Source: Limisphaerales bacterium | GTDB taxonomy: Bacteria > Verrucomicrobiota > Verrucomicrobiia > Limisphaerales > JADJPG01 | Length of the DNA stretch: 64,000 nucleotides | Assembly (NCBI GenBank): GCA_044230345.1 | Contig: JBGARF010000035.1 | Span: 60,403 to 124,402 of the forward strand | Reading direction: 5' to 3' | Shown here: positions 30,252-44,896 of the stretch, piece by piece | Layout: each line of letters starts with the position of its first letter | How positions within the stretch are numbered: the stretch's first letter is position 1 | The notes under the pieces: model-generated | What the model saw: only the letters and a program-made list of their open reading frames with translations | Told to the model about the DNA's origin: nothing | The model's database searches: none | Position numbers and translations under genes: made by a program

Positions 30252-33200
30252 TCAGAGCTTCAGCTGCAGCGCAATTCTGAAGAACTGCGCCTCGCCGGAA
30301 TTGGGCAGGACGACCCGATAGAGCCCGCCGCCGAGATGAACCGGCGTAATCGGGATCGTCGTCGGCTTCTGCCTCAAGTCCGCCGTCGCCTGAAGGGAAA
30401 ACTGCAGGCGATCAGCATAAAGGGGAGAGGCGAGCCACGTCGCCGCCATGGTCTTGCCCGTGCCGGGCGCGCCAGCACCGCCCGCGCCGCCGGCGCCATC
30501 GATGGGAACTTCCTCCACGTGCAACGTCGGCAGAGTCAACGCCGCGATCGGAACCGCAGGAGCACCGCGCCGATCGGTTGGATCGCTCCCTTCCCACATC
30601 TCCTGCAGGTTGGAATAACCGTCGCCATCGGCGTCATCGAAGGGATCAGCACCCAGCCCCCCGAGTAGCGCCATTTCCCAAGTGTCGATAAGGAGATTGC
30701 CGTCCGCATCGCCATCGGACCGGACCGGAACCGCTTCGAGCGAGACGGCGAGCACTTCGACGTTAAGTCCGGCGCAGGTGGTACTGATAACATCGGGCCG
30801 GCCGACGACCTCGACGAGCGCCCCCGGTTGGAGTTGGAAGGTGTCGGGGAAATCGAACGCGCCGCCGCCGAGGGCGAACAGGTTGACCGGGGTGGACGCC
30901 AGGTCCGCGGTCTCCAGCGTGGTGCAGGCACTTCCGATGGAATCCGGCCGCACTCGCAACGTGAGGTTGGTCACGGGCCGGCTGCCGAGTTGCTGCATCA
31001 CGGAGTGGACACCCGCGGCGGCATTGGCCAGCAAGGCAGGTGGAAAGCTGCCCGCTGCGATGTAGTTGGAGTGCACGATGCCGTCGCGGATGAAGTCACG
31101 CAGCACGTCGAGCGGCGGCCGGTAGAGGCCCGGAGCGGCGTTGTTCGAGACGCTGGAGACGCGATAGATTTCGCGAGCCACCGTAAGCAAGGCCTGCACT
31201 TGCGGGCTCGGGGCTTGGAGGACGAGCGTTTCCAGCGAATGATACATCTGGCGCAGATCGTAGGCGGGCCGCTGGACATCGCCGTGGGCCAGCAGTCCCC
31301 GCGCGTCGTCATCCAAAATCTGCCGTCCGGCATCGGCGGGGCGAAAGGGAAACAGGGTGAGATTGCTCCGGCTTGGGGATGCGGCGGCAAGGGCAGCACG
31401 CAAACGAGCCTCGAGCAGCGCAGCCGCGGCGGTTTGCGTCACCGTGATGTTCTGGGCACGAACCTCGTTGGTCGCATTGCCGTAGGCGAGCTTGGCAGCG
31501 GTCACCCAGTTCAACGCCTCGGCGTTGAGCACGCCCACTGCCCCGCCATAGAGGTACGGCACGGTGATGGGAGGAAGGATTGGCGATGGCAGGAGGGCGA
31601 CGAGTTCGCGCCCGATCCGGGTGTCGGCGGACGGAGTGAAGACGTCGAAGTGCGGATCAGTGGCGGCGACGAGGAGAGGCTGTGCCGGATGAATGAACAC
31701 ATTCGAGGCCGCCGCGGAAACGCCGATCGGATGTCCGACGCTGGCTGCGGCGAGCAGAGCCCCCGACCCGTCAAAGACGCGGACGCGCGACCCGCCCCGG
31801 GCGAAGGTTTCCGTGCCGGTCGTGCCGTCGAACGGTCGTGGTGTGAGGATCCAGTCCACGGCCGTGTGTTGCTCGTAGCCGGCGGTCGGTGGTTTGCTGG
31901 CCGCGTTGGCGGGGGAAGTGTTCTTCAGCAGTTCCTCCAGATCCGAAGCGCCATCACCGTCGGCATCGCTGCCGCTGCGGAGCGGGTCGAGGCCGTTGGC
32001 AATTTCGACGTAGTCAGGCACGCCATCGGAATCGGAGTCCAGCGTGCCAGGCCCGTCACGGAACGTGTAGATCTCCGTTTTGATCGACGTTTGGGCTGAA
32101 CCGAGCAATGCCCGCGCGCGGTGTTGGAGCGTGCTGTTCGTGAAGATTTGGACCGCTTGTCCCGCGTAGGCCAGCCAGGGGCCTTGGGCGTTCCGGCGAT
32201 ACAGCACCTGATAGCCGGGGGCGTCGACCTGAAACTGAACCGCGACGCTGCGGGCGTGAAAGCCGCCGGCGGGCTGGGCGCTGACTTGAACCACCGAAGG
32301 GCCGGAAGCGGCGCCGAGGCTGAAAATCGAAACTGCCTCGGTGTATTGGTTGGCGAGGCCGAACTGAGCTTGCGGATGACCCGCGCCAAGGTTGGCCGGC
32401 GTCGGATCATCGAGCCCGCGGGCGGCATCAGCGTATGTCTCGCTCGTCACTCCGACCTGCGGCGGGCCGCCCACGAGGGAGAAGAGCGAGGACCAATCGC
32501 CCGCATTGGCGCTGTGGAGCAGGCGCGGGTGCGGGGCGACAAAGGGCTCGAATTGAAACTGAAACACGTTCGCGCGCGCGCTCAGATCGGTCACGCTCGG
32601 CAACACGTTGTCGTGGCTGAGAACGAACGTTCCCGTGCCGGCATCGAACGCATAGCGCAACGAACGCGACGTGCGGGTGCCATTGGCGTGGCTGACGCCG
32701 AAGGTGACCGCGCCGTTGCCCGACGGTGTGGCCCCGAGAATTCGCTGTCCGTCCGGCGGGAGAAACTCTTGGCTCACCGTCGGCAGGTTGTTCCCGTCGA
32801 AGTCAAAGGCCGCCGCGCGAGCACCGTCATCAAACACGGCCACGAATCGGGCCGGCACACCGGCGGCCGCCGGCAGGGTGACGAGGGAGCGGATGGCGTG
32901 GCCGAGCGCAAACTGGTTGGTGGGACCGGCCTGAAACGTGCCCGGGATCGGCTCGGCCACCGCGTAAGTGGTGAAGTTGCTCTGCCCCGGCCGATAAACC
33001 AGGAACCTTGCGAGATTGCTGCCGCCGAAACGGCCGGCGGCGTACTCGACCCCAGCCGGCAGCGGGCCGAATTCGAGAAACGTCTCCTGCGGCCCAAGCG
33101 CGTGGCTGATCAGGCGAAGAACGTCCGTGTTGCCACGCGCCAGGACGGCGAGGACGGGCGCGGTGCCGTCGCGGAAGATGACGCGGTTGCCGCGTTCCCA

Positions 33201-33905
33201 GCGCTGCGCGATCACGTCTTCCTGCAATGAGACGAACGTCGCCCCGTTGCTGTTGCGAATGGTGGTCGCGCGATAGGAGGGCGTATTCCAGACGCTGGCC
33301 ACGACGAGGTCGTGCAGCGGGGAGTTGCCCGCGCCGCCCACCTCCATCGCGACGACCTGGTTGGGACCGACGGCGTTGATGAAGAACGTGACCGGCAAGC
33401 CGGGCTGGGCGGGATCATTGGCCGGCACGACATTGATTCGGTTGGCGGCTTCAGCCGTGAACACCAACCCGTGTGACGCCACACTGAACAGATTGCCGAC
33501 CGAGAACCCGGTGACATCCGCAATACCGCTCGCGCGAGGTTGGGTCCACCCGGGCTCGCCGTCCGGAGTTTGATACGCCACCCGATAGGCGCCGGTGACG
33601 CGATCGACGATGACGGAATCGATGAGACCATCACCGTTGAAGTCGCCGGCGGCCGCCCATTCCGCCGGGCCGTGTGGCCGGACGAACGTGTAGTCGTCGA
33701 GCGGGGCGGCAGCGAGAGGGAGGGCGGTGAGGACGAGGAGAACGAGCATGGCCAAGACATTGCGGAACGTGCTTCCGGGCTCGCCCTCACCCGCGAGGAT
33801 CGCGGGAGAGGGAGGAACTTCAGCGGCGGCGTGGTGGATTGAATCGGCGGGGAACATTGCGGTGCCCTTTTGTGAACAAGTGAAAGAATATAAAAGTGCG
33901 TTCAT
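30252..33905 (-). CDS. large exported hypothetical protein (1217 aa) with an FG-GAP/VCBS-like segment and thrombospondin-type-3-like Asp-rich Ca-binding repeats
   Basis: Hydrophobic leader MLVLLVLTALPLAAAP. AAAGDFNGDGLIDSVIVDRVTGAY (FG-GAP-like). DSDSDGVPDYVEIANGLDPLRSGSDADGDGASDLEEL and DGDADGNLLIDTWE...DPFDDADGDGYSNLQEMWEGSDPTD (TSP3-like). Alternative start ATG 33857 (MFPADS...) has AAGGG 9 nt upstream. Function unknown. Confidence 0.75.
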   Translation of the reverse strand: MNALLYSFTCSQKGTAMFPADSIHHAAAEVPPSPAILAGEGEPGSTFRNVLAMLVLLVLTALPLAAAPLDDYTFVRPHGPAEWAAAGDFNGDGLIDSVIVDRVTGAYRVAYQTPDGEPGWTQPRASGIADVTGFSVGNLFSVASHGLVFTAEAANRINVVPANDPAQPGLPVTFFINAVGPNQVVAMEVGGAGNSPLHDLVVASVWNTPSYRATTIRNSNGATFVSLQEDVIAQRWERGNRVIFRDGTAPVLAVLARGNTDVLRLISHALGPQETFLEFGPLPAGVEYAAGRFGGSNLARFLVYRPGQSNFTTYAVAEPIPGTFQAGPTNQFALGHAIRSLVTLPAAAGVPARFVAVFDDGARAAAFDFDGNNLPTVSQEFLPPDGQRILGATPSGNGAVTFGVSHANGTRTSRSLRYAFDAGTGTFVLSHDNVLPSVTDLSARANVFQFQFEPFVAPHPRLLHSANAGDWSSLFSLVGGPPQVGVTSETYADAARGLDDPTPANLGAGHPQAQFGLANQYTEAVSIFSLGAASGPSVVQVSAQPAGGFHARSVAVQFQVDAPGYQVLYRRNAQGPWLAYAGQAVQIFTNSTLQHRARALLGSAQTSIKTEIYTFRDGPGTLDSDSDGVPDYVEIANGLDPLRSGSDADGDGASDLEELLKNTSPANAASKPPTAGYEQHTAVDWILTPRPFDGTTGTETFARGGSRVRVFDGSGALLAAASVGHPIGVSAAASNVFIHPAQPLLVAATDPHFDVFTPSADTRIGRELVALLPSPILPPITVPYLYGGAVGVLNAEALNWVTAAKLAYGNATNEVRAQNITVTQTAAAALLEARLRAALAAASPSRSNLTLFPFRPADAGRQILDDDARGLLAHGDVQRPAYDLRQMYHSLETLVLQAPSPQVQALLTVAREIYRVSSVSNNAAPGLYRPPLDVLRDFIRDGIVHSNYIAAGSFPPALLANAAAGVHSVMQQLGSRPVTNLTLRVRPDSIGSACTTLETADLASTPVNLFALGGGAFDFPDTFQLQPGALVEVVGRPDVISTTCAGLNVEVLAVSLEAVPVRSDGDADGNLLIDTWEMALLGGLGADPFDDADGDGYSNLQEMWEGSDPTDRRGAPAVPIAALTLPTLHVEEVPIDGAGGAGGAGAPGTGKTMAATWLASPLYADRLQFSLQATADLRQKPTTIPITPVHLGGGLYRVVLPNSGEAQFFRIALQLKL

Positions 33906-33926: not shown

Positions 33927-36900
33927 TTACTGGATTTGGACCGGGTTGGTGGGCATGACCTCGGCAATCTCGCGCGTGTCGGGATTGAGCCGGACGAGGA
34001 AGTATTGGTAGGTGGCATCATCGACCACCGGCTGCGTGTCGAGCAGATACAACTCCCAATCGGGAGCAGACGGCGTGGCCGTGGTGGGAATCAGTCGGAT
34101 GAACGGGTCGTGGACAAACACGGCATTGGCGCCGTTGGGGGTCAGAGCGCGGTCGAACGCGATCTCTTCCATGAGCGGCGTGACCTGAATGACGTCCCGG
34201 GAAACCTCAGGGAAGGCCGCGTTCGGGATCTGTGCGCGGTAAACGACGAGCGGGAAGAGCCGGCCCTGATCGCGGGCGCTGCGATAGACATGCTCCAGGG
34301 GATCCGTGCCGCCCGCGATGGCGTTGGTCATGTTCGGCGGAAAGAGCGGCATCGTCAGGGCGCCGACCCGGATTCCGACGCCTTCAAAGCGTTGTTGGGG
34401 AAACGGCAGGAAGGCCGGGTCTGAATTGTTAAACATCCTGGCGTGAACGCGCGGGAAGTTCGTGGACGTCACGGTCGGAAGAGAACGGGCTGGCCAGGGC
34501 ACGTTGGTCAACGGCCCATTCGTCGACACCTGCCAGATGAACTGTTCCGTGTTGCTCTTCGGCCCGATGGAGCCGTCCTTGCCCACCGCGCGGATGAACA
34601 CGGCGTAGTGATTGCCCACGGTGACGTCGGCGTCGGTGGTGAAGACCGATCCGTTCCCGAAGCTGGGTCCGATGCGCCGAGAGAGGAACGTGAGCAGTTT
34701 GGGCTGGACCATCGGAACCCCGGGCAACGGCAGGCCCAACTCGACTGCATTGGTCAACGTGAGATCAGGAGACAGGCTCTTCCCGGGAGGCAGCGGGGCA
34801 CCTGCGACCCAGACTTCGAAACGCTCGATTCCGTAAGGCGGACAGAACCATTGCAGACGCATCCGGGCATTGGTGGAGGTGCCGACGGCGGTCAAGGGCG
34901 ACAGAATCGGAGTGGGGAGCGGCGCGTTGGGGCCAGTCTTGACGCAACCGATCCGGACCATGGGGCTGGCGTTCCCATGTTCGTCGAACTGTTGGATGAA
35001 GTAACAAATGTCCGAAGGTTGGGCGGGCATCGAACCATCGCAGCACATGGCCGGGGCCGCCACGGTGGCGTCAGCCTCACGCTGGCAGACCAGCGTGAGC
35101 GGGCCGTTCTCGACCCGACGATAGAACTTCACCTCCTTGGTGCCCGGCGAAAGATTGGCCGCAACACAGATCTCGTCGATGGTTCCGTCGCCATCGCCAT
35201 CGCCTTGCGGGTCATGCACCGTGCAATCGCCTCCGGGACGGACGCGACGCGATTCGATGGTGCCGGAGAACAGCACCGGACGGGTCGATCCGTCGGGCGC
35301 GGGGATGATGGTCGAACTGACGGCGAACTCCGAGACCTTGCCGTTGACGGCACCGACCCGGCAGTAAAACCGCGGGGCGAGGGCGGGAAACTGCGGGTTC
35401 TTGGGCAGAGCGAATTCGACGGTCGCGGCGTTCAGGCCGGGGACGAAGAACTGTCGGGCGATCTGGACGCGTTGGGTATTGAGGCCGGACAGATCGTAGT
35501 AAAACTCGGCCCATTCGATGGCGGGACGCAGGCGTTCCGTCGTCAGCCGAAAATGAAGCGCGTTCGTGGGCAGGCCCGGGACCGGCACGGGAGCACTGTC
35601 CCGAACGAAGCGGACGGTCGGTTCGGTGCAGGTGATCTCGAGCTCGCCGTCGCCGCCAGCCGGCCCCACCCGATCGCGGAGCACGCCGAACGCGGGCGCG
35701 CTGTGCGGGCTGCGGTTGCCGCCAGGCGCGCACGCGCCGTGATCGAGCGCGACGACCGTGTACCAGAACGTCACGCCGGCCTGGGTGGCGGCGAGGGGCG
35801 AACCGGGGCCGTTGTCGAGGTAGCTGTTGGTCGGAGATCCGGCCAGATGCGGGATCGGCCCGGCCACAAGGTTGAAGGCCGGGTCGCCCGCATGGGCGTG
35901 CATGTCGGGCAGGCTGGCCCAGCGATAGATGTAGTAGGCAGTGGTGATGTCGTTCGTGTTCGCGTTCTGATTCCAGACCACCTGGAGATGTTGCTGGGGC
36001 GCCCCGTTGTAAACATAGTGATTCAAAACGCGGACCCGACTGGGCGCCTGGGGCGGCATCCGATCGCAAATCGTGATCAACGTCCCACGGGACACGAGGC
36101 CGTCGCGTCCCAGCAGGTCTCGCGCGGTCAGGAAATAGTAAAACTGCGCGCCGTTGACGAAGTCGTTCTGGGGCTGCTGGGTGTTCGGATTGAAGCGGTC
36201 GTTCCAGTCGGAATAAAAAAACGTGCTGGCGTCCGCCGCCAGATTGAGCGCTTCCGCTTCGGTGTAGTCACGCGGCTGCAAGACCGGCAACCGATTGAGT
36301 CGATGGACGAGCGGATTGGATTGAACAGCCGCCAGCAGGGCCCCTGGGGAGGGCGGCGCAAGATGCCAGTTGTTCTGTTGGGCCAGGACGGCCGGAACGC
36401 GATAGACATTGAATCCATGCTGGAGCATGGAAAGACGCCGCAAAGCGTCCGGGGTCGACCAGCGCAGCTTGGCATTGAGGTCCCCCTTCGGCGTGACGTC
36501 CGGGACTTCAACGGGGCGGCCGGGCGCCGGCAGCACAACCGGTTGCCGGGCGCGGACCGTCGAACGACCCACCACTCCGAGATCGCGATCGTTGCCGACG
36601 TCAAAGACTCGAACCTCGAAGGTCGTGCGGGTGCCCGCCGGGCCCGGGATCAGCGCGGCGTGCGCCCAGCCAAGGCAGAGCGCCACTCCCGGATGAGTGC
36701 GCGCCATCAGCACCAGGTTCTTAAACTGATCCGGATCATCGATGGAACCGCGGATGACGGCCGACAACTTCTGGGCCAGCGGCAGCTTTGCATCGGGCAT
36801 CAACCTTTCGAACAAGCTGTTGATGGTTTCCTCGAGGTAGTTGAGATCTTGGCCGAGATGAATCGATCTTTGGAGGAGCGGCTGGATCACCGTCGGATCC

Positions 36901-37412
36901 GTTTGCACCCGCAGAATCGCCTGCCGCTCGTAGTTCGCAGTCGAGTTGGCCTCACCGGGCTTGGCGTAAACGGCAAACACGCGCGAGCGCAGCGTCGCGG
37001 GATCGCTCGTGATCCAGCAGAGGTAGGCCCAATCCCGGCTTTGGGAATCATAGGTCGTGGTGCCGGCAACGAGGATGTCGTCGCCACCAGATGCGGCCTG
37101 AATTGTCGAGGAAAGGAAAAAGAACAGGAGCGAGAGCAGAGCGGCGAAGGGGAGCAATACGATCGAGGAACCCGGCCGGAGCGCGGGTTTCCAAACCCGC
37201 AGCGCCTCGTGGCGGCGACCGGGCTGGAAGGTTCCAAGGTTGGCGGACGGTCCGACCCGCAGCGGACGGTAAGGCCGCGCTCCAAACGCGGGCGCGCCAA
37301 GCTCATTCTCTCCCCCGGGGAGAGGGAGAAAATCAGCGGCGGCGTGGTGGGGCGGACGAGCGTAGAACGCTGCGGTGCGCTTCGGCGAGAAGGTGATTGT
37401 CTGCGTATGCAT
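33927..37412 (-). CDS. large exported/anchored hypothetical protein (up to 1161 aa), possibly with FN3-like segments; 5' end doubtful
   Basis: Long ORF with coding-like composition. Hydrophobic segment IVLLPFAALLSLLFFFLSSTIQAASG at residues ~85-110. The first ~80 codons run through two REP-type palindromes (37308-37324, 37183-37200), so the real start is probably near 37205. No named family recognised. Confidence 0.7.
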   Translation of the reverse strand: MHTQTITFSPKRTAAFYARPPHHAAADFLPLPGGENELGAPAFGARPYRPLRVGPSANLGTFQPGRRHEALRVWKPALRPGSSIVLLPFAALLSLLFFFLSSTIQAASGGDDILVAGTTTYDSQSRDWAYLCWITSDPATLRSRVFAVYAKPGEANSTANYERQAILRVQTDPTVIQPLLQRSIHLGQDLNYLEETINSLFERLMPDAKLPLAQKLSAVIRGSIDDPDQFKNLVLMARTHPGVALCLGWAHAALIPGPAGTRTTFEVRVFDVGNDRDLGVVGRSTVRARQPVVLPAPGRPVEVPDVTPKGDLNAKLRWSTPDALRRLSMLQHGFNVYRVPAVLAQQNNWHLAPPSPGALLAAVQSNPLVHRLNRLPVLQPRDYTEAEALNLAADASTFFYSDWNDRFNPNTQQPQNDFVNGAQFYYFLTARDLLGRDGLVSRGTLITICDRMPPQAPSRVRVLNHYVYNGAPQQHLQVVWNQNANTNDITTAYYIYRWASLPDMHAHAGDPAFNLVAGPIPHLAGSPTNSYLDNGPGSPLAATQAGVTFWYTVVALDHGACAPGGNRSPHSAPAFGVLRDRVGPAGGDGELEITCTEPTVRFVRDSAPVPVPGLPTNALHFRLTTERLRPAIEWAEFYYDLSGLNTQRVQIARQFFVPGLNAATVEFALPKNPQFPALAPRFYCRVGAVNGKVSEFAVSSTIIPAPDGSTRPVLFSGTIESRRVRPGGDCTVHDPQGDGDGDGTIDEICVAANLSPGTKEVKFYRRVENGPLTLVCQREADATVAAPAMCCDGSMPAQPSDICYFIQQFDEHGNASPMVRIGCVKTGPNAPLPTPILSPLTAVGTSTNARMRLQWFCPPYGIERFEVWVAGAPLPPGKSLSPDLTLTNAVELGLPLPGVPMVQPKLLTFLSRRIGPSFGNGSVFTTDADVTVGNHYAVFIRAVGKDGSIGPKSNTEQFIWQVSTNGPLTNVPWPARSLPTVTSTNFPRVHARMFNNSDPAFLPFPQQRFEGVGIRVGALTMPLFPPNMTNAIAGGTDPLEHVYRSARDQGRLFPLVVYRAQIPNAAFPEVSRDVIQVTPLMEEIAFDRALTPNGANAVFVHDPFIRLIPTTATPSAPDWELYLLDTQPVVDDATYQYFLVRLNPDTREIAEVMPTNPVQIQ
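37177..37324. repeat. REP-like hairpins inside the nominal 5' end of ORF 33927..37412
   Basis: cggagcgcgggtttccaaacccgcagcg (37177-37204), same family as 30055/30134. ctctcccc-c-ggggagag palindrome (37308-37324), same family as 18082 and 18279. Confidence 0.55.
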
Positions 37413-37472: not shown

Positions 37473-40400
37473 TTAGAAATCGAGCTTCCACTTGCCTTGC
37501 TTGAAGGTGAGCGCGACGGACTGTTCGAGCTCGAGGCAGAAGGGACAGGGGCCGACCGATCCGCCGACGGTGCCCTTGGCCTTGACCGTGAGACCATCGA
37601 GGACGTTGGGATCGAGGCCTTCGAGCACGGCGGTGCCGGTGAGGTCGCCTTTGACGCCGATGAGGCAGAGGGCCTCGCCGCTGACGCCAGCATTCATCTT
37701 GGCCACAAACGTGGGGCCTTCGAGGAACACGCCGGCGCCCAGGCCGAGCCCGGCCGAGATGTTGAACAGGCAGGAGGCGGGGATGCCGATCAACTCGTTG
37801 ACGGGGATCCAGGCCTCGCCGTAGGCATAAATGCCCGTGAACGGTGGTGTGCCGAGCAGGCTGGCAACTTCGGGATCCCAAAGCCGGATGGGATCCAGCG
37901 AGCAGGTGCGACCGAAGTAAATGCCGCCGAACACATCGTATTTGTTGACCCGCATGCCGGCGGCCGCGCTGAGGTAGTTCTCGTCGGCACCGAGCGCCAC
38001 CGAAGCGCCGAGAAAGTTGATGGCGAACGCCTCGTACTCCAGCTTGCCAGTCAGTTCGAAACTGCCGCCCAAACCGCGCAGCGGAAAGCCAACGCCATCG
38101 TCATCGAAGGTGAACTTCGTTCCCACACTGGCGCGGAGCTCCGGACTGATCCAGCCGACTTGAACGTCTTCGGCTCCGAGCGTCACTTCGGTGATGGAGC
38201 CCGAGGCACCGTAGTTGCAACCGGCGGTGCCTTGCGAATCGAGTTCCTTGACCTGCAGGTAGCCGTTGAACTCAAGCGCGCTGCCGAAATCGAGTCGGGC
38301 TCGCAGATCGACACGCGCCTCCTTCAGTGAGTCGCCGTTGATGTGCGCGTAACCGTTCAGCTTGGCCGTGGCGGCCATTTGGTCGAGGGGCGCCAGCAGG
38401 CTGGTAAAGGCGTTGTTCAATTCCTCGGCCGTCTCGCCGACGACCAGACGGATGACGTTGTTCAACTCCTGGAACACCGTGTCGGTGGCCTGCCGAATCG
38501 CCGCATCGACGTCGTAGAGGCGGTGTTTATGCACGGCCTGGATTCCGGCCGTGAGCGGCAGTCCGTGGAACCGATCCTCAATCTCGCGCCGGATCAGCTG
38601 TTTGATCTCCTCCGGAGAATAGTCGTCCACCGGTGAGTCGAGGGCCAAGTCGATGCCCTGAATGAAACTGCCAAGGTCAGAGATCATCTCCGGCACGGCG
38701 GCCGTGATCTCCGGGGCGTGCGAGGTAAAGAGATCCTGCAGTTCAGCGCCCAACCCGCCGACCGGATTCGCGATGGTGGCGCGGACCTCGCTGACCGCGG
38801 TTCGCAGGTTGTTCAGAACGAGATGAATCTGGTCGAGCGTCGGGTCGGCCTCCTGGAGGATGGGCTGAACGATCTGGTCGACGAATCCGCCGGCAAACTC
38901 GAGGGCCTCGCGGTTGACCAGCAAACGCATCAACTCCGATGCGATGTGCCGGTTGCCGGCCGGGTCCTCGGCCAGAATGGATTCAATTTGCAGCACCGCC
39001 TGTTCAGCCTGAGCGAGGTAATTGGTCAGGCGCCGCATCATGCCGGGCTGGTTCAAGGCCGCGCTGGCCATTCCTTGCAGGCGATTCCTGATGTTTACCG
39101 GATCGGTCAGGAAGGCGGCGTCCACCTCAAGGCCCACGGCGTCTGGCCAACTTCCCGGGTCCAAAGGATTGTAAGCGGCAACCATGGCGTCGTAGAGCTC
39201 GTCCACCTTCGGCTGGATCGATTCGTCAAAGATCCCGCCGAAGAACGGATGCAGATCGGCCGCGAGGATCTCGTCAAGGCGTCCGAAGCCGGTCAGAAGA
39301 TCGCCGGTGAAATTCGCGCCAGCATCGGTGGCCAGGTCAATGGCCTGGTAGGCAAGGTTCGCGAGGTTGAACTGGGGCAGGCCGTCGAACTGCGCTCCGA
39401 AGGTGATCTCGGCGTTCTTGGCGCTCAGGTATTTGAGCTCGTTCTCCGTGCTCAACACCATCAGGTCCCTCACGATGGGCGCGCGGGAACGGAAGTCGCG
39501 GGTAATGGACGACCAGGTGAGCGGATAGTCGAAATCGATGATCTTGAGCCAGGTCCGTCGGGCGCGGGGATGATAGGCGTCCGTGCCGCTGTCGCGATAT
39601 TCGTTCGGCGTCCGGCCTTGGGCGTAACCTCGGTTGAGATCGTCGAAGTACGCCGCCGTGAAGAAGTTCATCCCGGCCGGCGACTCCCAACCGTGCGTGG
39701 GCCAGCCTCCGAGCAGATGGATGGGCGCGTTCGAATTACCCGTCGCGGCACTGGTCTGGAGATGAACCCGCAAATCCTCGAAGAAGGGAAGGTCCATCGA
39801 CGCGGCGATGTTCACCCAGCCGACGGCGGGGGCGTTGGTGCCCGCGTTGGCTGGAATTTGATCGTGGCCGTTGAAGTAGACGTCCGCGACCGGATTGAGC
39901 GTGTAGAACTCGTCGCGCGGACCGGCCACGCGGATGACGTTCGGGAGTTTCAGACGGGAGTCGACATCCGCGGGACCGACGGCGCGAGGGAGCAGGTTGC
40001 CGTTAGGCAGGAAGCCCAGCGTGCCAAAGAGCGTTTCCTGGACGTGAGCGATTTGCGTTCGGGCGCCAAGAGTGAGGTAGGCATTGGTGACGTTGCAAAT
40101 CTCCGCCGGATCGCGCCGGAACTGAAGCGCAAGCGCGTCGAAGCGGCCGTTCCAATAGGCGAGCGGAAGATTCGTGGCCGGATGGGCCATCGGAGCGCTC
40201 TCGATTCCGCCGAGGCAATTGAGGCGCAAGCCGGCAAACTCCAAGGTGAAATCCGATGGAAACGGCAGGTCGATCAATCCATCGATGCGCGATTGACCCA
40301 TTTGATTGTCGAGACAGTTCAGGCCGAAGTTCGCGAAGTCGAAGTGGTAACCATAAAGGCTCAGCGTGGCGGGGAAAGTGCCGGGGACAGCGTCATGAAT

Positions 40401-42815
40401 CCCGCTGACGCCTCCGCGCCGGGCGTAGTATTTCGAAATGCCTTTGAGCTGGTAGGTGCCCGTCGGCCGGCCCGCCAATGTGCTTTGGCCCTGGCGGAAT
40501 CCGTCGCTGCCGACGGCAAGGTTCATGCCGGCGTAGTCGGCAAAGCCAAGTTCGTAAGCGATCTGGTTCGGCGTGCCGGGGGCGTCGGGACGTTCCAGGT
40601 AGAGAGCGTTGGTGGCGGCCACACCAGTGTAGAGGAGCGTAGCCGGGCGATGCACGAGGGACGCGTCCGACTGGTCGCCCCGGAGGGAGTGGCCGGGCAT
40701 GTGAAAGCTGGCCTGGGTGAAAGTGGCTGCCTCGTGCGCAAAGGCGCCGAGGGAATCGATGTAGCCCCAGCGCAGTCGATGTGGCGCGTCCAGATTGCCC
40801 GCGCCCACCAATCCGCCGTCGCGCGTGAAGCGGAGCACGCCGTTCGTCGGCAGGAGGCGCATCAGCCGAGTCGTGTCGTCCGGCTGACAATCAACACCCG
40901 TGCAGCCCGTGCCGTAGTTCAGCGCCACCGGGTTCACGCCCGTCAACTCGCTGGCGCCTGACTCGATCAAATCGCCGGCAATGGCGATCGTGCCACCGAC
41001 CAGCCACTCAACGTGGGCATCGTAGGGAAAGTGCGCCCGGAAAACGCCCGGCCCGACCGACAAACCGGCGGTCAGGCGCCCGACACATTGCGGGTCAGCC
41101 AGCACGTTGACGGGCGAGGTCACCGTCAGGCCGGCGTGATAGACGCGATCATTCGATCGCTTCAGCGAACGCTGGGCGTTTTCAAGCACGCCATGCACGG
41201 CTTCGAGCCGGTTGTAGTCGTCCGACCGAACGTGAGTCGCACCGCCGGGAGGAACCGCCAGGTCGAAGCGACCTTCGGCCACCCGCCAGGTGATGGCGGC
41301 CGTTTGCCACCAGATCGGTTTGGATTCTTCCGCCACATAGATCGCGGCCGGCGGGGTGAAAACGACATCGTTGATCGGCCGAAGATTCGTGCCCAACGGC
41401 ACGGCGGTGGCCGTAAAGCTGTGGCGCAAACGGTGCCCAACCGTGTCGGAACGGTACCCAAGTCCCGTCGGCAGGTGGACGCGCAAGCCGCTGACGAGGC
41501 CTTGTGGCGTGAGCGCGGTCGGCGACACCAGTTCCATGCGGACGTTGACCACCTTGGTTGAGCCTCCCGGCGGAAGGTTGAGCGGGAGAGCACCCGCGTC
41601 CGCCTCCGCATCGCCGTTGACGAGCAGCCGGACGTTCAAATCTGTCCCGTCGCCATAGGTCACCCCCGGAAGCCCGGGGATCATTCCACTTTGCGCATCG
41701 ACGCTGAGGACGGAGTTGACGTGCGATCCGGGCGAGGTCCCAAGCCGGGGCGGATCGTTGTCGATGCTGCTGAACGTGGTCTGAAGCGCGCCGAAACGAA
41801 GATTGCCGTTGAAATGGAGAAGCTGCGCGGCGGACGACGAGGCGCTGCTGTCGGTCCGCACGCTGGCCGGGACGCCGGACTGTTCAAGGTGCGACAAGGT
41901 CGCCACCAGTCGATACCGATGATCCACGGAGTCGAGCTGAACGCCGTTGGCCGGCCGCACCCGGACGGTTCGCGTGGCGGTCTGGGCCCAGGGCGCATGC
42001 GGATTGTCAGGCGGCGGGGGCGTGTATTTGAACAGGGAGCGGTTGAAGTTCGTGGCATTGGTCGCGAGCGGAATGATTTGCCCCGTGGATTGGTCGACGA
42101 GTTGATACGAAAGCGTGATCGGCACGAGTTCAGCCGGGCCGGAACCGCCCTGGAAATTGTCGTGACGATGCAGCGTGTATTCCACCTCGGCCTCGAATGA
42201 GTTTCGATCGGGATCGGTCCGGACGGCCGTGGATTGGGTGAAGGCCACCTGATCCACCGTGCCGACGACATTGAAGCCGGGATCAGCGCTGACCAGATTG
42301 GTGAAGTGGATGAATTGCTGGGGTGAGTTCGTTTGACGATCGATTTCGCGAAGCCCGCCCGGCACAAACAGCCGCAGCTCGACCGTATATCGATCGTCCG
42401 GGTCCAGGCGCGTGCTGGGGCGGAGCGCAGCAACATTGGTCCGGGAGACGCTTGCGCCGGCGGCGACACCGAAGGTGTTGGTCAGGTTGTAGGTGGCATC
42501 CGGATTGGACGTGCCCGTGGAATCGAGGATCGGGTGAGGGACTCCCTGGGAGTTGAGCAATCGGAAGCGAAGGTGATAGGTGGTGGCCAGGACCGCGCCG
42601 TCCGGATTCGTGGTGCGGACGCGACTCTGCACCAGCAGATGCTCGCGGTTGTGGGCCGGGTCAAGCGTGTTGGCGTCGGCGTCGATGACGTACCCGGTGT
42701 AATTGGTGTTTTGCAGGCCCTGGATGCCGTGCGTAAGCGCGCCTTGGACCGGGCGCGCGGTGGCGACGATTCCCGTGAGGAGCGCCGTCGACAGTAAAAC
42801 TCGCATTGCCTTCAT
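37473..42815 (-). CDS. giant secreted hypothetical protein (1780 aa): signal peptide, long beta-rich N-terminal part, ~300-aa helical region, beta-rich C-terminal domain ending ...KWKLDF
   Basis: MKAMRVLLSTALLTGIVATARPVQG signal peptide. Helical stretch around ...LDEILAADLHPFFGGIFDESIQPKVDELYDAMV...LNNLRTAVSEVRATI...IRQATDTVFQELNNVIRLVVGETAEELNNAF. The last ~300 aa have an alternating-hydrophobic beta pattern and a terminal Phe. No family recognised. Confidence 0.8.
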   Translation of the reverse strand: MKAMRVLLSTALLTGIVATARPVQGALTHGIQGLQNTNYTGYVIDADANTLDPAHNREHLLVQSRVRTTNPDGAVLATTYHLRFRLLNSQGVPHPILDSTGTSNPDATYNLTNTFGVAAGASVSRTNVAALRPSTRLDPDDRYTVELRLFVPGGLREIDRQTNSPQQFIHFTNLVSADPGFNVVGTVDQVAFTQSTAVRTDPDRNSFEAEVEYTLHRHDNFQGGSGPAELVPITLSYQLVDQSTGQIIPLATNATNFNRSLFKYTPPPPDNPHAPWAQTATRTVRVRPANGVQLDSVDHRYRLVATLSHLEQSGVPASVRTDSSASSSAAQLLHFNGNLRFGALQTTFSSIDNDPPRLGTSPGSHVNSVLSVDAQSGMIPGLPGVTYGDGTDLNVRLLVNGDAEADAGALPLNLPPGGSTKVVNVRMELVSPTALTPQGLVSGLRVHLPTGLGYRSDTVGHRLRHSFTATAVPLGTNLRPINDVVFTPPAAIYVAEESKPIWWQTAAITWRVAEGRFDLAVPPGGATHVRSDDYNRLEAVHGVLENAQRSLKRSNDRVYHAGLTVTSPVNVLADPQCVGRLTAGLSVGPGVFRAHFPYDAHVEWLVGGTIAIAGDLIESGASELTGVNPVALNYGTGCTGVDCQPDDTTRLMRLLPTNGVLRFTRDGGLVGAGNLDAPHRLRWGYIDSLGAFAHEAATFTQASFHMPGHSLRGDQSDASLVHRPATLLYTGVAATNALYLERPDAPGTPNQIAYELGFADYAGMNLAVGSDGFRQGQSTLAGRPTGTYQLKGISKYYARRGGVSGIHDAVPGTFPATLSLYGYHFDFANFGLNCLDNQMGQSRIDGLIDLPFPSDFTLEFAGLRLNCLGGIESAPMAHPATNLPLAYWNGRFDALALQFRRDPAEICNVTNAYLTLGARTQIAHVQETLFGTLGFLPNGNLLPRAVGPADVDSRLKLPNVIRVAGPRDEFYTLNPVADVYFNGHDQIPANAGTNAPAVGWVNIAASMDLPFFEDLRVHLQTSAATGNSNAPIHLLGGWPTHGWESPAGMNFFTAAYFDDLNRGYAQGRTPNEYRDSGTDAYHPRARRTWLKIIDFDYPLTWSSITRDFRSRAPIVRDLMVLSTENELKYLSAKNAEITFGAQFDGLPQFNLANLAYQAIDLATDAGANFTGDLLTGFGRLDEILAADLHPFFGGIFDESIQPKVDELYDAMVAAYNPLDPGSWPDAVGLEVDAAFLTDPVNIRNRLQGMASAALNQPGMMRRLTNYLAQAEQAVLQIESILAEDPAGNRHIASELMRLLVNREALEFAGGFVDQIVQPILQEADPTLDQIHLVLNNLRTAVSEVRATIANPVGGLGAELQDLFTSHAPEITAAVPEMISDLGSFIQGIDLALDSPVDDYSPEEIKQLIRREIEDRFHGLPLTAGIQAVHKHRLYDVDAAIRQATDTVFQELNNVIRLVVGETAEELNNAFTSLLAPLDQMAATAKLNGYAHINGDSLKEARVDLRARLDFGSALEFNGYLQVKELDSQGTAGCNYGASGSITEVTLGAEDVQVGWISPELRASVGTKFTFDDDGVGFPLRGLGGSFELTGKLEYEAFAINFLGASVALGADENYLSAAAGMRVNKYDVFGGIYFGRTCSLDPIRLWDPEVASLLGTPPFTGIYAYGEAWIPVNELIGIPASCLFNISAGLGLGAGVFLEGPTFVAKMNAGVSGEALCLIGVKGDLTGTAVLEGLDPNVLDGLTVKAKGTVGGSVGPCPFCLELEQSVALTFKQGKWKLDF

Positions 42816-42895
42816 TTGGTGTTCGATCGTTTTCGTGGAGCCGGGTTGGGCTCACGGGAGGTTTAAGAAGAAGTTTTGAAAGGTAACAAAAAGGG
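42705..42895 (-). repeat. copy A of ~190-nt duplicated segment (promoter/5' UTR plus first ~38 codons of the giant gene)
   Basis: Aligns base-for-base with 43770-43963. By hand count the non-coding ~100 nt are about 88% identical. The coding-derived 78 nt are 57/78 identical. Shared AT-rich block gttttgaaaggtaacaaa. Confidence 0.8.
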
Positions 42896-42906: not shown

Positions 42907-43749
42907 TCACTGAATCAGTGAGTGAGGACCCTGGCCCGAGTCGCAAAGGAGTGGCTTTTTCTGGTATTGAGCGGGGATGGACACGATCGGCTCCGGCAGT
43001 TGCGCTTCGACCCTGCGACGGCCCACGACGCGGACGTAACCGAGATGGTTACCGGAGTCGGCTTCCAGCGCTCTAATCCCTGTTGCGTTGTCGGGCGCAA
43101 CCAAGCGGAGCCAATCCAGCCAACGCTGAAACCCATCGGGAAGCGCGTCGGCCACTTCGATGTCCATGATGCCCGTCCGCCCCCAGTGCCGCCGCCACCA
43201 GTTCGCGGAATGCAGGCTCCACGGCTGCTCCTCGGACCACCACTCCCGCAGATGCGCGGGCACCGGGCCCTCCATCTCCCGCATAAGACCCGCCTGAGCG
43301 ATTCCGATCCGGCCTTCTGGTTTGATGAACCGGGCGAGGTAATTGAGGTAGGTGTCGTCCGTTCCGTAGTAGACAAAAGAGTCAATGGACACGATGGCGT
43401 CGAAGAAACCCGCGGCAAACGGCAGGGCCCGCGCGTCCGCGCGGATCGGAAAAACATCATCCCCGACTCCCGCATCCCGGACGCGTTGAAGATTCTCCGA
43501 GGGGTCGAACCACAGATCGGTGGCCCAGACGCGAACGCCGAATTCGCGGCACAGAAAGATCGAGGACATCGCCCGGCCGCAGCCGAGATCCAGGACCCTC
43601 ATGCCAGGCTGCAAATGCATCGCTTCCGTGAGCCACTCCGCCAGCCAAAGCGGATTTGCTCCTCCACTGGCGCCCGCCCGGATCCAATCGGGGTGATATC
43701 GCAACGAGCGAGGGAATCGCTCCGAAGTGAGTTGATGGTCGTGGCTCAT
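42907..43749 (-). CDS. class I SAM-dependent methyltransferase
   Basis: 280 aa. Motif I VLDLGCGRAMSSIFL, acidic loop VWATD, motif post-I/II FDAIVSIDSFVYYG, IKPEGRIGI. No signal peptide. Confidence 0.85.
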   Translation of the reverse strand: MSHDHQLTSERFPRSLRYHPDWIRAGASGGANPLWLAEWLTEAMHLQPGMRVLDLGCGRAMSSIFLCREFGVRVWATDLWFDPSENLQRVRDAGVGDDVFPIRADARALPFAAGFFDAIVSIDSFVYYGTDDTYLNYLARFIKPEGRIGIAQAGLMREMEGPVPAHLREWWSEEQPWSLHSANWWRRHWGRTGIMDIEVADALPDGFQRWLDWLRLVAPDNATGIRALEADSGNHLGYVRVVGRRRVEAQLPEPIVSIPAQYQKKPLLCDSGQGPHSLIQ

Positions 43750-43880
43750 GGCGTGGCCGCTTTGCAGGTGGTGTTTTGCAGACCTCGGCCGCCGTGAGTA
43801 AGCTTGCCTCGGACGGGGCGAGTGGTGCCGATGCTCCGTGCGAGGGGAGCCGTCGACAGAAAAATTCGCATTGCCTTCAT
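43746..43880 (-). CDS. 44-codon leader ORF derived from the 5' end of the giant gene; translationally coupled to the methyltransferase
   Basis: MKAMRIFLSTAPLARSIGTTRPVRGKLTHGGRGLQNTTCKAATP versus giant-gene N-terminus MKAMRVLLSTALLTGIVATARPVQGALTHGIQGLQNT. Its TGA (43746-43748) overlaps the methyltransferase ATG (43747-43749). Too short to be in the supplied ORF track; translation is unproven. Confidence 0.4.
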   Translation of the reverse strand: MKAMRIFLSTAPLARSIGTTRPVRGKLTHGGRGLQNTTCKAATP

Positions 43881-43963
43881 TTGGTGTTCGATGGTGTTCA
43901 CGAAGCCGGTTTTGGCTTCACTGGAGGTTTAAGCAGAAGTTTTGAAAGGTAACAAAGAGAGGG
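43770..43963 (-). repeat. copy B of the ~190-nt duplicated leader segment
   Basis: See copy A. Contains the same cattgccttcatttggtgttcgat start region and aggtttaag.agaagttttgaaaggtaacaaa block. Confidence 0.8.
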
Positions 43964-44158
43964 CCGAAGGCTCGCGCGCGGTAAACCTCAAGCCCTGGTC
44001 CGGGTCCCGTCATCACTCGCTTACTCACTAACTCACCCGCTCACTCAATTCCCCAATGCCCGGTTGCGGACGGTCGCAAGTGCTGGTTTCCCCGCTTTTT
44101 CCCTCTTCCATCGAATGCTCCCGTCTGGTCTTCTGGAGTCCTGTCGGACCGATGCCCC

Positions 44159-44896
44159 ATGAGTGACGAAGCGAAACCGATTTTTGCCAGCACGCACTGG
44201 AGCGCGGTGCTGCGGGCGGGGAGTTCAAGCTCGCCGGAGGCGCGAGAGTCGCTGGCGGAATTATGTCGCACCTACTGGTATCCGCTCTACGGCTACGCAC
44301 GCAGTGCCGGCTTGGATGTGCCGGAAGCGGAAGATTTAACCCAAGGATTCTTCGGCAAATTGCTGGAAAAGAACTATCTGGGGGTCGCCGATCGGCGGCG
44401 CGGACGGTTCCGATGGTTCCTGCTCACCGCGTTCAAGTGTTACCTCGCGAATGAATGGGATCGGTCCCAGGCCCAGAAACGGGGCGGCGGCCAGGAGATC
44501 GTGTCTTTCGATGGCGTATCCGCCCAGGAACGCTACCGGTTGGAACCGGAAACATCGGCTAGCCCGGACCAACTCTATGACCTGCGCTGGGCCGAGGATC
44601 TCCTGGCGCGAGCGAAGGAACAGGTGCGAGACGAATATGAAGGGCCAGCCGACGACAGTCGGAAGCGGAAGTTCATCCAGTTGGCGCAGTATCTCCCCGG
44701 CGGAGACGCGGTGATGAGCCATGCCGAACTCGGGGCGTCTCTCGGGATCAGCGAGGCGGCGGCCAAACAGGAGGTTTACCGATTGCGCAAGCGGTTTGGC
44801 GAGCGCTTGCGCGAAGCCGTGGCTGAAACCGTGGCGCACCCTGATGACGTAGACGACGAGATTCGATACCTGATCGACATCGTCTGCCGGCGGTAG
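44159..44896 (+). CDS. ECF-type sigma-70 family RNA polymerase sigma factor; no adjacent anti-sigma gene
   Basis: 245 aa. THWSAVLRAG...LAELCRTYWYPLYGYARSAGLDVPEAEDLTQGFFGKLLEK (region 2) ...RFRWFLLTAFKCYLANEW...; C-terminal region 4 HAELGASLGISEAAAKQEVYRLRKRFGERL. Confidence 0.85.
   Translation: MSDEAKPIFASTHWSAVLRAGSSSSPEARESLAELCRTYWYPLYGYARSAGLDVPEAEDLTQGFFGKLLEKNYLGVADRRRGRFRWFLLTAFKCYLANEWDRSQAQKRGGGQEIVSFDGVSAQERYRLEPETSASPDQLYDLRWAEDLLARAKEQVRDEYEGPADDSRKRKFIQLAQYLPGGDAVMSHAELGASLGISEAAAKQEVYRLRKRFGERLREAVAETVAHPDDVDDEIRYLIDIVCRR

Follow-up and report, generated by a model that had tools for sequence, protein, structure and literature searches.

Three giant exported proteins encoded as a conserved gene triad in Verrucomicrobiota and Kiritimatiellota: a candidate envelope-associated complex

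Three very large genes follow one another on the minus strand of a 64,000-nt stretch of Limisphaerales DNA (the whole of which is hereafter called the window), raising the question of whether they specify a single cell-surface assembly or unrelated adhesins, and whether the methyltransferase, sigma factor and kinase genes around them belong to the same system. The first-pass annotation had placed these six ORFs correctly, both in coordinates and in strand (Table 1), and the three giants, here designated A, B and C, together encode about 4,000 residues. The gaps of 60 and 21 nt reported between them are present as nominal values, the true spacing being probably larger given the start sites. In B, similarity to homologues begins only at about residue 80–110, and the sole internal start, a TTG at 37157, is probably the true one; the product would then be about 1076 aa long and, consequently, the A–B spacer would measure 315 nt. 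For C, the gene caller's product has 1201 aa and starts at 33857, and the true start is probably this position or 33755/33749.

Table 1. Features of the triad locus, in window coordinates; residue numbers of B and C follow the nominal ORFs
Feature	Window position	Strand	Residues	Remarks
Gene A (giant, exported)	37473..42815	-	1780 aa	ORF list
A: Sec leader			1-25	seen in sequence
A: N-terminal head				varies between homologues; precedes conserved core
A: conserved beta-rich core	41048-39486		about 590-1110
A: helical bundle	39365-38406		1151-1470	320 residues
A: 16-strand amphipathic beta domain	38375-37476		1481-1780	Phe at end
Gene B (giant, exported)	33927..37412	-	nominally 1161 aa	ORF list
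B: hydrophobic leader			80-108
B: alpha/beta domain			about 114-400	followed by a run of FN3/Ig-like beta-sandwich domains
Gene C (giant, exported)	30252..33905	-	nominally 1217 aa	ORF list
C: FG-GAP-like repeat region				N-terminal
C: TSP3 Asp-rich Ca-binding cluster 1	32045-31926		about 621-660
C: TSP3 Asp-rich Ca-binding cluster 2	30710-30567		about 1066-1113
Class I SAM-dependent methyltransferase	42907..43749	-	280 aa	Methyltransf_25/11 matches
Divergent ECF-like sigma factor	44159..44896	+	245 aa	weak ECF matches
Membrane Ser/Thr kinase with WD40	26384..29899	-	1171 aa	Pkinase and WD40 matches
Duplicated block, proximal copy	42704..42893 (approximate)	-		A upstream region, 5' UTR and first 37 codons
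Duplicated block, distal decaying copy	43769..43959 (approximate)	-		just upstream of methyltransferase
Relic leader ORF	43746..43901	-	51 aa	mostly within distal copy of duplicated block
AAC-N16-CGT motif, candidate ECF-type promoter	42875-42854	-		proximal copy; read from sequence
Palindromic element pair, mutually inverted, about 28 nt each	30055-30082 and 30134-30162			C–kinase spacer

The comparative evidence on the first part of the question is direct. In tblastn searches, the A-B-C order and orientation were kept in 67 of the 68 loci in which all three genes were found, with C downstream of B in related loci, and the per-residue scores of A, B and C were correlated across loci (r = 0.82–0.87). 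The flanks of the triad, on the other hand, were unrelated between loci, and the triad was found with differing flanks both in six loci reached via individual homologues and in the 80 loci of a genome scan. With synteny this strict and divergence correlated, a chance adjacency of the three genes is ruled out, and the earlier suggestion that they form one unit rather than three unrelated adhesins was thus borne out: A, B and C are inherited, duplicated and diverging together. At least 11 assemblies carry two to four copies of the triad, and single assemblies hold both paralogous and variant triads. The carriers belong to several orders of Verrucomicrobiota and include a Kiritimatiellota isolate, and some of them are in culture, for example Pontiellaceae B1224 and Oceanipulchritudo coccoides CK1056, which makes the question raised by the triad directly testable. 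Clustering of the neighbouring genes revealed no recurrent fourth member.

It had also been stated that none of the three proteins could be assigned to a family, and the searches agree with this. Neither A nor B is covered by a Pfam or NCBIfam model, relatives by sequence were missing from the PDB, and every named triad homologue is called "hypothetical protein"; the triad was found under no name and in no publication, structure or domain model. Export of all three proteins is nevertheless well supported by features of their sequences, namely N-terminal hydrophobic leaders (in C, with a hydrophobic core at residues 51–68) and Cys columns that are conserved in the alignments of A, B and C, to which the TSP3_bac matches of C can be added.

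Protein A had been sketched as a signal peptide, a helical region and a beta-rich C-terminus ending in Phe, a description that matches both the sequence and the structural model (residues 581–1780, pLDDT 77). A itself has no match in Pfam or NCBIfam, and the part shared by its 38 full-length homologues (28–84% identity) contains no Pfam domain, while in some relatives lectin-like N-terminal modules (Laminin_G, MAM-like) are found in place of the head. The modelled C-terminal domain comprises 16 strands of 11–15 residues and a short terminal one, connected by mostly short turns. All 16 strands are amphipathic, and across homologues aliphatic or aromatic residues make up 72% of their hydrophobic face and charged ones 6%, against 30% charged residues on the opposite face. 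When the model was compared with the PDB by Foldseek, the local matches of highest probability (0.85–0.97) were the outer-membrane barrels OmpT, ScrY, BtuB, MtrB and FhaC; LamB, a sugar porin like ScrY, was also among the barrel matches, and porin-like proteins were found in BFVD, although statistically all of these are weak (E 0.07–0.5, TM 0.2–0.34). In 49 of 73 loci A ends in an aromatic or aliphatic residue; that one third of the homologues lack an aromatic end counts against a barrel, as do conserved Cys residues in or beside the strands of the putative barrel, an unusual place for them in barrels of the outer membrane. From the model, we infer that the C-terminal 300 residues would form an outer-membrane beta-barrel of porin size, or at least a sheet in contact with membrane or lipid.

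Among known systems, type V autotransporter-like adhesins share several traits with A: the Sec leader, an extensive N-terminal part that is rich in beta structure and has a variable tip, a long helix (of 50 residues in A) directly before amphipathic antiparallel strands, and a terminal residue that is usually aromatic. However, 16 strands are predicted in A versus 12, a 320-residue helical bundle stands in place of a single linker helix, and A has two obligate partner genes. Additionally, neither the autotransporter beta-domain (PF03797) nor a passenger family was detected by Pfam in A and 22 homologues, even at E<=5, and A was rejected as a classical type Va autotransporter on the missing PF03797 match and the modelled strand number.

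For B, the earlier sketch of a hydrophobic leader followed by FN3-like segments is upheld by the model (pLDDT 86) and by Foldseek, in which strings of FN3/Ig domains and chains of macroglobulin domains were matched with E-values of 1e-14 to 1e-7, at TM-scores of 0.08–0.16 and identities of 6–14%. B is accordingly modelled as a probable rod of FN3/Ig-like sandwiches, although no Pfam or NCBIfam match was obtained, FN3 and A2M included, and a profile search of the PDB came back empty. As a string of beta-sandwich domains, the model resembles fibronectin, cytokine receptors and the alpha-2-macroglobulin/complement family; the likeness is a generic one that concerns individual domains, and B differs from the alpha-2-macroglobulin family in having no thioester or bait region. 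An identity as an alpha-2-macroglobulin or thioester protein was therefore rejected, the fold matches being generic and of low TM, with no Pfam match and no sequence relative in the PDB. The family is large, with at least 183 homologues and 1380, 865 and 536 clusters at 50% identity for E<=1e-3, 1e-10 and 1e-30, respectively, and it is strongly constrained in places: 32 columns are invariant in an alignment of 75 sequences, and the motif TARDLLGRDG is near-invariant.

The description of C as an FG-GAP-like segment with two TSP3 clusters also holds, with a weak FG-GAP signal. Pfam and NCBIfam returned only TSP3_bac at residues 1091–1111 and sub-threshold TSP3-type matches at about 617–694, and FG-GAP_3/FG-GAP is weakly present in 4 of 18 homologues. 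In its TSP3 and FG-GAP-like repeats, C recalls bacterial adhesion proteins of the envelope that are termed "integrin-like", namely Myxococcus CglD/MtsD and the Akkermansia Amuc_1099-type pilus-like protein, but the gene contexts differ and the scores against the NCBIfam equivalogs fall far below the cut-offs (Amuc_1099 family, 31.7 vs 50 bits; MtsD, 27.5 vs 800; CglD, 14.3 vs 400), with matches confined to the TSP3 repeats at about 617–694, so that C was not accepted as an equivalog of any of them.

Taken together, the leading interpretation, to which we give a little less than an even chance, is that one conserved operon encodes A, B and C, and that they work as a single extracytoplasmic, envelope-anchored complex. 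A would be the anchoring subunit, held in the outer membrane by its C-terminal 16-strand domain, which is preceded by a helical stalk, the conserved beta core and the variable head. The head would be a distal ligand-binding tip, as which its replacement by lectin-like modules in some relatives would be expected. B, as an FN3/Ig rod, and C, with its FG-GAP propeller-like part and two TSP3 clusters, would bind A, giving a surface structure that is stabilised by calcium and serves in adhesion or ligand capture, and whose divergent copies within a genome would confer differing specificities. The complex would lie at the cell surface; all three proteins could also be periplasmic, no route by which B and C would cross the outer membrane having been identified. 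It is more doubtful, though a serious prospect, that the triad represents an undescribed envelope machine of Verrucomicrobiota and Kiritimatiellota, either a new class of surface apparatus anchored in the outer membrane, built on a 16-strand barrel subunit with a helical stalk and two obligate partner proteins, or, more radically, a bacterial counterpart of large lipid-transfer proteins. If true, it would combine folds and function in a way that has no characterised equivalent. Both phyla are abundant in soil, water and guts, where they degrade polysaccharides, and their envelopes are poorly understood. Learning what the triad does, whether in adhesion, substrate capture, secretion or lipid handling, would close a considerable gap in the cell biology of PVC bacteria, and new protein families or folds could emerge from it.

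An unlikely alternative is that the triad serves polysaccharide export or glycan capture, A being a porin of the outer membrane whose helical part serves as a scaffold in the periplasm, or a glycan-binding platform at the surface, and B and C handling the polymer. Exporters of the BcsC/PgaA/PelB type combine a porin with such a scaffold, and in A the helical block directly precedes the 16-strand domain. The sugar porins ScrY and LamB among the barrel matches, the Laminin_G or MAM modules of some A relatives and a CHB_HEX_C_1-like domain in two C homologues point in the same direction, and paralogues in two to four copies per assembly would fit the polysaccharide-centred lifestyle of both phyla. 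However, no TPR or exporter family was detected by Pfam in the helical block, the large N-terminal beta region of A has no known counterpart in such exporters, and neighbour clustering showed no glycosyltransferase, synthase, hydrolase or TonB/Sus-type gene to be recurrent beside the triad.

Also improbable is a lipid- or hydrophobic-cargo complex of the periplasm or outer membrane, in which A would be a bacterial analogue of vitellogenin, MTP or ApoB, its amphipathic sheets lining a cavity for lipid, and B and C would be accessory. Its main attraction lies in the fold matches of A, since only eukaryotic large lipid-transfer proteins reached E<1e-3 in Foldseek and the six best PDB matches all belonged to this class (E 3.4e-5 to 6.7e-3), namely ApoB100 (3.4e-5 and 1.2e-4), MTP (5.1e-5, 4.6e-4 and 6.7e-3) and lipovitellin (1.1e-3). 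Like vitellogenin, MTP and ApoB100, A has a beta domain, a helical domain and then large amphipathic sheets, the strands having a strongly hydrophobic face, and its helical block gives weak apolipoprotein-type matches. However, such matches are typical of any Ala/Leu/Glu-rich helices, and the fold alignments, although about 1000–1700 columns long, have TM-scores of only 0.04–0.09 and probabilities of 0.11–0.75, so that the similarity may reflect only the order of secondary-structure blocks, in a model covering residues 581–1780. The known lipid-transfer proteins of this class are moreover eukaryotic and share no sequence-family signal with A, neither Vitellogenin_N nor a related Pfam family being found in 23 homologues even at E<=5, and this explanation leaves no obvious role for lectin-like heads, an FN3 rod and a TSP3 propeller.

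The second part of the question concerns the neighbours, of which the methyltransferase had been proposed as a component of the system carrying a copy of the leader of A. The protein scores above threshold against Methyltransf_25 and Methyltransf_11 in Pfam (44.9 vs 27 and 40.5 vs 21.2 bits) and far below the cut-off against every NCBIfam equivalog. The copy does exist, but it lies outside the protein, upstream of its ATG: a block of about 190 nt is present twice, the copies being 81–86% identical, and the stop codon of the relic ORF in the distal copy overlaps the methyltransferase ATG as ATGA. An equivalent duplication of 55 nt flanks the gene in L007, the closest relative of the window locus, and these two loci are the only ones in which this methyltransferase lies beside the triad. 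Because it is flanked by a duplication, the gene is read as a recent insertion between the upstream region and gene A, outside the conserved module, and it would have taken a copy of the upstream region of A along; its proposed membership of the system was thus abandoned.

The sigma factor, transcribed away from the operon, is ECF-like but divergent: it falls short of the curated cut-off of both ECF models, with 18.0 bits against 21.1 in PF07638 and 27.1 bits against 42.9 in TIGR02937. The first-pass annotation had called it an orphan ECF sigma factor; no anti-sigma gene adjoins it in the window, in agreement with this, whereas the ECF assignment itself can be retained only as ECF-like. The kinase, described earlier as a transmembrane protein with an extracytoplasmic WD40 sensor, fits that description, with Pkinase and WD40 matches and, in the hydropathy profile, a single hydrophobic helix (residues 343–371) between them, for which reason the kinase domain is placed in the cytoplasm and the WD40 propellers in the periplasm. 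As general partners of the triad, both can be set aside. Relatives of the sigma factor lie beside it only in L007 and in L084, a related Limisphaerales MAG, and are absent from 84 of 86 loci, while a kinase with WD40 occurs in three loci (L007, L026 and L084), with one further kinase-only case, and is absent from more than 80 of the 86.

A lineage-specific link remains plausible, since in L084 a paralogous triad follows paralogues of the sigma factor and the kinase, the layout being sigma-kinase-A-B-C and the gaps measuring 93 and 30 nt. ECF groups that are associated with kinases and have no anti-sigma factors are on record (PMC7826278). The window sigma factor recalls such groups (ECF43, ECF59-62 and ECF217/267/283) in that no anti-sigma gene adjoins it and a transmembrane Ser/Thr kinase is encoded in the vicinity; the two genes are directly adjacent in L084 but about 14 kb apart in the window, with the operon between them, and the window sigma factor differs from these groups in scoring below the ECF model thresholds. 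In the window lineage only, the operon is probably controlled by an ECF-like sigma factor coupled to the kinase, which would sense an envelope signal through its periplasmic WD40 part and activate the sigma factor; the latter would read the candidate AAC-N16-CGT promoter in front of A. This motif is kept in the A-proximal copy of the duplicated block both in the window and in L007, and its -10-like CGT has become AGT in the distal copy; upstream of A in other loci it is not enriched (9/54 vs 30/270 control windows). Sigma factor and kinase are plausible as local, lineage-specific regulators of the triad.

That all six genes constitute one dedicated system is quite improbable. They occur in identical layout in L007, the regulator paralogues precede the L084 triad, and the methyltransferase, having the upstream sequence of A in common, may be co-expressed with it. 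However, L007 synteny carries little weight at identities of 84% for A and 86% for B, the sigma factor and kinase are missing from most loci as detailed above, and the place of the methyltransferase in such a unit is largely refuted by the comparative context. Least credible of all are a mere adjacency of three unrelated adhesins, already dismissed by the synteny described above, and a Tc-like ABC toxin that is secreted. Three giant genes in one orientation do bear a superficial likeness to TcA-TcB-TcC, and in P0180, a distant relative of C, a TcdB_toxin_midN annotation stands beside FG-GAP and VCBS repeats, but the defining domains (VRP1/TcA in TcA, SpvB and TcdB mid in TcB, RHS repeats with a toxin tip in TcC) were missing from A, B and C in Pfam and NCBIfam, and all three have Sec leaders. 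To our knowledge, Tc subunits have none.

The spacer between C and the kinase gene measures 352 nt, and no canonical terminator was detected in it. Two REP hairpins had been noted here; two inverted palindromes are indeed present, but no further copy was found in the window that would speak for dispersed repeats. The pair may be a transcript-end or stability structure.

Three giant exported-protein genes of the window (A, B and C, together the triad) were found to recur as a set in other genomes. A word-indexed search retrieved 38 homologues of A, all full length and 28–84% identical, with no domain annotation in their shared part. On the contigs of three A and three B homologues (6/6), the same A-B-C order was observed between unrelated housekeeping flanks, the carriers including the cultured Oceanipulchritudo coccoides CK1056, a Prosthecobacter MAG and the Kiritimatiellota isolate Pontiellaceae B1224. 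Additionally, 165 loci were confirmed by a B-alignment scan of species-representative genomes, and 80 of these were fetched for tblastn with the window proteins. By tblastn, the order A-B-C was kept in 67 of the 68 loci holding all three genes, the single exception (locus L036) appearing as B-C-A through either a rearrangement or an assembly effect, and the per-residue scores of A, B and C were correlated (r=0.82–0.87). Such conserved order and correlated scores indicate that triads are inherited, duplicated and diverging as matched sets, and it is very probable that the three genes function jointly. Scans of A and of B against Pfam and NCBIfam gave no match, there being no family model at all for either protein. 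Therefore, the proposal of the first-pass annotation that the three giants form one undescribed module was borne out by synteny, by score correlation and by this lack of a family model.

At least two triads were present in at least 11 assemblies, and four, one of them a divergent variant, were found in the MAG closest to the window, which belongs to Limisphaerales (Verrucomicrobiota). A full HMMER search with a B profile reached 1380 cluster representatives (50% identity) at E<=1e-3, 536 of them at E<=1e-30. The source names seen for A, B and C homologues all read 'hypothetical protein' except for labels at domain level, one example being 'Fibronectin type-III domain-containing protein', assigned automatically in UniRef. 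No exact match of A is on record in public assemblies, and no relevant literature description of such a Verrucomicrobiota system was found. Divergent triad variants were seen in loci L087 (3516-16628) and L088 (4585-18867): one comprises an A′ of 2159 aa with Laminin_G domains, a B′ of about 1200 aa and a C′ of 949 aa, and the other an A′ of 1799 aa and a C′ of 1744 aa, with a HEAT-repeat protein and another giant ORF downstream; the B′ proteins of variant triads align with only about half of B. Triad contigs also occurred in some oddly labelled MAGs (L017, L027, L030, L034, L037, L041, L045, L046, L048, L051, L056, L077 and L086), the labels being Bifidobacteriaceae, Bifidobacterium, Cyanophyceae, Rhodobacteraceae, Holophagae, Acidoferrum and Limnocylindria, with Akkermansia muciniphila listed too. 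Errors of binning or labelling are the probable cause in these MAGs, and not genuine carriage outside the PVC group.

The coordinates of all six ORFs described in the first-pass annotation were reproduced by the ORF scan, and they are collected in the table with the other features of the region.

Features of the triad region (positions in the window, except for the last line)
Feature	Position	Strand	Size	Remark
Kinase ORF	26384..29899		1171 aa	ORF scan; downstream of C, 352 nt spacer
Palindromic pair	30055-30082, 30134-30162		~28 nt each	mutually inverted; C-kinase spacer
Gene C	30252..33905	minus	1217 aa (nominal)	ORF scan
Gene B	33927..37412	minus	1161 aa (nominal)	ORF scan
Gene A	37473..42815	minus	1780 aa	ORF scan
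A-proximal block copy	42704-42893	minus	~190 nt	A upstream region, 5′ UTR and first 37 codons
AAC-N16-CGT motif	42854-42877	minus		39 nt upstream of A ATG, in A-proximal block copy
Methyltransferase ORF	42907..43749		280 aa	ORF scan; upstream of A
Methyltransferase-proximal block copy	43769-43959	minus		81-86% identity to A-proximal copy; directly upstream of methyltransferase
ECF-like sigma factor ORF	44159..44896	plus, divergent	245 aa	ORF scan
Sigma, kinase, A, B, C block of L084	807-9857	one strand		gaps 93 and 30 nt; positions in locus L084

The gaps of 60 and 21 nt reported between the three giants hold as nominal ORF spacing only, because later starts are indicated for B and C: B aligns with its homologues from about residue 80-110 onward only, and in C residues 51-68 form the hydrophobic leader, the start in the public gene call being 33857. 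In B, TTG at 37157 is the sole internal start codon, and residues 1-87 are disordered in the predicted model. Among called genes of other genomes, A and B are 4-49 nt apart, and B and C range from a 4-nt overlap to 43 nt apart. The GC content of the window is about 64%. In the spacer between C and the kinase, two palindromic elements are indeed present; however, their description as REP hairpins was not upheld, no more copies being found within the window; they may serve as a terminator or in RNA stability. Neither Rfam families nor tRNA genes were detected in the window.

With regard to protein A, 23 homologues scanned against Pfam and NCBIfam at lax thresholds gave non-specific helical matches only, and a profile search of PDB sequences gave coiled-coil noise from the helices but not a single relative. 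The model of A (residues 581-1780, 33 sequences, pLDDT 77) displays a confident beta-rich core at residues 581-1145 (pLDDT about 85-94 across residues 581-1040), then a 320-residue bundle of 14 helices, the final one being 50 residues long, and a C-terminal part of 16 successive antiparallel strands connected mostly by short turns. Fifteen of these strands have 11-15 residues and the terminal one has 5. All strands are amphipathic across homologues, the hydrophobic face being 57% aliphatic, 15% aromatic, 15% Gly and 6% charged, against 30% charged residues on the opposite face. The C-terminal consensus is ITYxNGSWDVDF, and in 49 of 73 loci the protein ends in an aromatic or aliphatic residue. 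In the Foldseek search, the matches ranking next after the lipid-transfer-protein hits discussed below were outer-membrane barrels (OmpT, BtuB, ScrY, MtrB, FhaC, FimD, LptD and OmpF), all weak (probability <=0.97, E 0.07-0.5, TM <=0.34), and in a viral fold library porin-like proteins had the top probability, none being significant. The N-terminal head of A varies among homologues: two Laminin_G_3 modules replace it in one protein (P0032), and MAM-like segments occur in two others (P0014, P0026).

Among the three proteins, conservation is strongest in B, with 32 invariant columns that include the TARDLLGRDG motif. In its model (75 sequences, pLDDT 86), a hydrophobic helix at the N terminus is followed by an alpha/beta domain (about 114-400) and a run of beta-sandwiches, for which Foldseek returned generic FN3/Ig or macroglobulin domain strings only, at low TM. 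Protein C combines a region of FG-GAP-like repeats with two TSP3 clusters; its only Pfam/NCBIfam matches were a bacterial TSP3 repeat and sub-threshold TSP3-type matches, and a lax-threshold scan of 18 C homologues yielded TSP3 and weak FG-GAP, some of the homologues having a CHB_HEX_C_1-like sandwich. For B and C, profile searches detected no relatives among PDB sequences. Conserved cysteines occur in each of the three proteins and agree with an oxidising extracytoplasmic location, and inspection of the three leaders revealed no lipobox-type cysteine.

The triad is co-inherited, and its products carry export signals and calcium-binding repeats. The reading tentatively favoured here is that of an envelope-anchored, calcium-stabilised complex for adhesion or ligand capture. 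The C-terminal amphipathic beta domain of A, as modelled, would anchor the protein in or on the outer membrane, from which A would project a helical stalk, the conserved core and the variable, sometimes lectin-like, head; B, as an FN3 rod, and C, as a propeller with TSP3 clusters, would complete the adhesive or ligand-capturing structure, and paralogous triads might confer different specificities. The building blocks are known ones (FN3/Ig sandwiches, FG-GAP, TSP3 and a porin-like or amphipathic sheet), and the overall logic resembles that of type V outer-membrane-anchored adhesins. No family membership test run on the triad placed it in a described family. The triad would therefore fall among envelope-anchored multi-domain surface proteins, a known kind; a separate machine of a type not yet described is less probable. 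Identities as Tc toxin, alpha-2-macroglobulin or Amuc_1099/MtsD/CglD were rejected on family membership tests.

Functions beyond those considered here retain a low though appreciable probability. A machine for polysaccharide export or capture is unlikely. The same can be said of a complex that handles lipids in the manner of large lipid-transfer proteins. ApoB100 and MTP were the only Foldseek matches of A at E<1e-3, and lipovitellin and another MTP chain lay just over that threshold, all with TM <0.1.

The first-pass annotation had further united the triad with the methyltransferase, the sigma factor and the kinase in one six-gene unit. The first of these neighbours is a class I SAM methyltransferase by Pfam/NCBIfam, and its pairing with a triad is confined to the window and the closest related locus, L007, where the triad is 84-86% identical to that of the window. 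A duplicated leader does exist, as part of the roughly 190-nt block; however, it lies upstream of the methyltransferase gene and not inside the protein, in which BLASTP detected no similarity to the A leader. The methyltransferase-proximal copy gives rise to a decayed leader ORF of 51 aa, whose stop overlaps the methyltransferase start (ATGA), and a 55-nt version of the same duplication is kept in L007. The duplication bracketing the gene is an insertion footprint, and the methyltransferase is an insertion incidental to the triad and no part of the system.

The case of the two regulators is divided. The sigma factor is ECF-like, scoring under curated Pfam/NCBIfam cut-offs, and the kinase protein combines a kinase domain, one hydrophobic helix (residues 343-371) and WD40 propellers, which are predicted to face the periplasm since this single helix lies between them and the kinase. 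An iterative HMM search of flanks found sigma relatives beside the triad only in L007 and L084, and kinase-WD40 proteins adjoin it in L007, L026 and L084. Locus L084 is a paralogous triad in a related Limisphaerales MAG (identity 35% for A, 39% for B and 35% for C), and its layout suggests joint duplication of the triad and the sigma/kinase pair in this lineage, as a five-gene block that was later rearranged. Sigma factor and kinase are thus plausible regulators in this lineage only; they are rare beside other triads, and ORF clustering in the flanks of 86 loci revealed no fourth recurrent gene, the top clusters being generic signalling proteins. Set against the L084 arrangement, this rarity and the inserted methyltransferase leave the full six-gene unit quite improbable. 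Chance adjacency, which the order kept across loci contradicts, or a Tc-like toxin is the most remote reading.

Groups of ECF factors that are associated with Ser/Thr kinases and lack anti-sigma factors are a described class (PMC7826278), and the ECF-like sigma factor, if coupled to the kinase, would follow this known regulatory design. Upstream of A, AAC-N16-CGT (42875-42854) is a putative ECF-type promoter motif by our own reading; in the window as in L007, the A-proximal copy retains it intact, and the methyltransferase-proximal copies have degenerate forms of it. Elsewhere, no enrichment of the motif was seen in front of A, a result that a lineage-specific regulator would predict, and scanning the operon for sigma-70 promoters and terminators gave nothing informative. 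What emerges is a large, phylum-spanning, wholly unannotated operon with cultured carriers, whose function we so far infer.

The window is rich in further giant secreted proteins. Two adjacent ORFs of 1109 and 1393 aa (18651-21980 and 22149-26330, both plus) contain PATR, the passenger-associated transport repeats characteristic of autotransporter-type passengers. A 1120-aa Laminin_G_3/Ig-domain protein (48691-52053, plus) is followed by a giant of 2446 aa (52176-59516, plus) with six lamin-tail domains, a CotH kinase-like domain and Laminin_G_3, and a comparable LTD/CotH giant lies close to the triad in the Kiritimatiellota locus L005. A 1063-aa histidine kinase (10565-13756, minus), with WD40 propellers in its N-terminal sensor part, is found near a second one of 776 aa (14244-16574, minus); together with the Ser/Thr kinase, WD40 sensors are thus present on two kinase classes in the window. 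Finally, a PVC-type heme-binding CxxCH protein (TIGR02604/TIGR02603; 44990-47353, minus) and a 1314-aa DUF7133/HEAT/cytochrome c/DUF6807 protein (59980-63924, minus) are large redox-domain proteins typical of the lineage.
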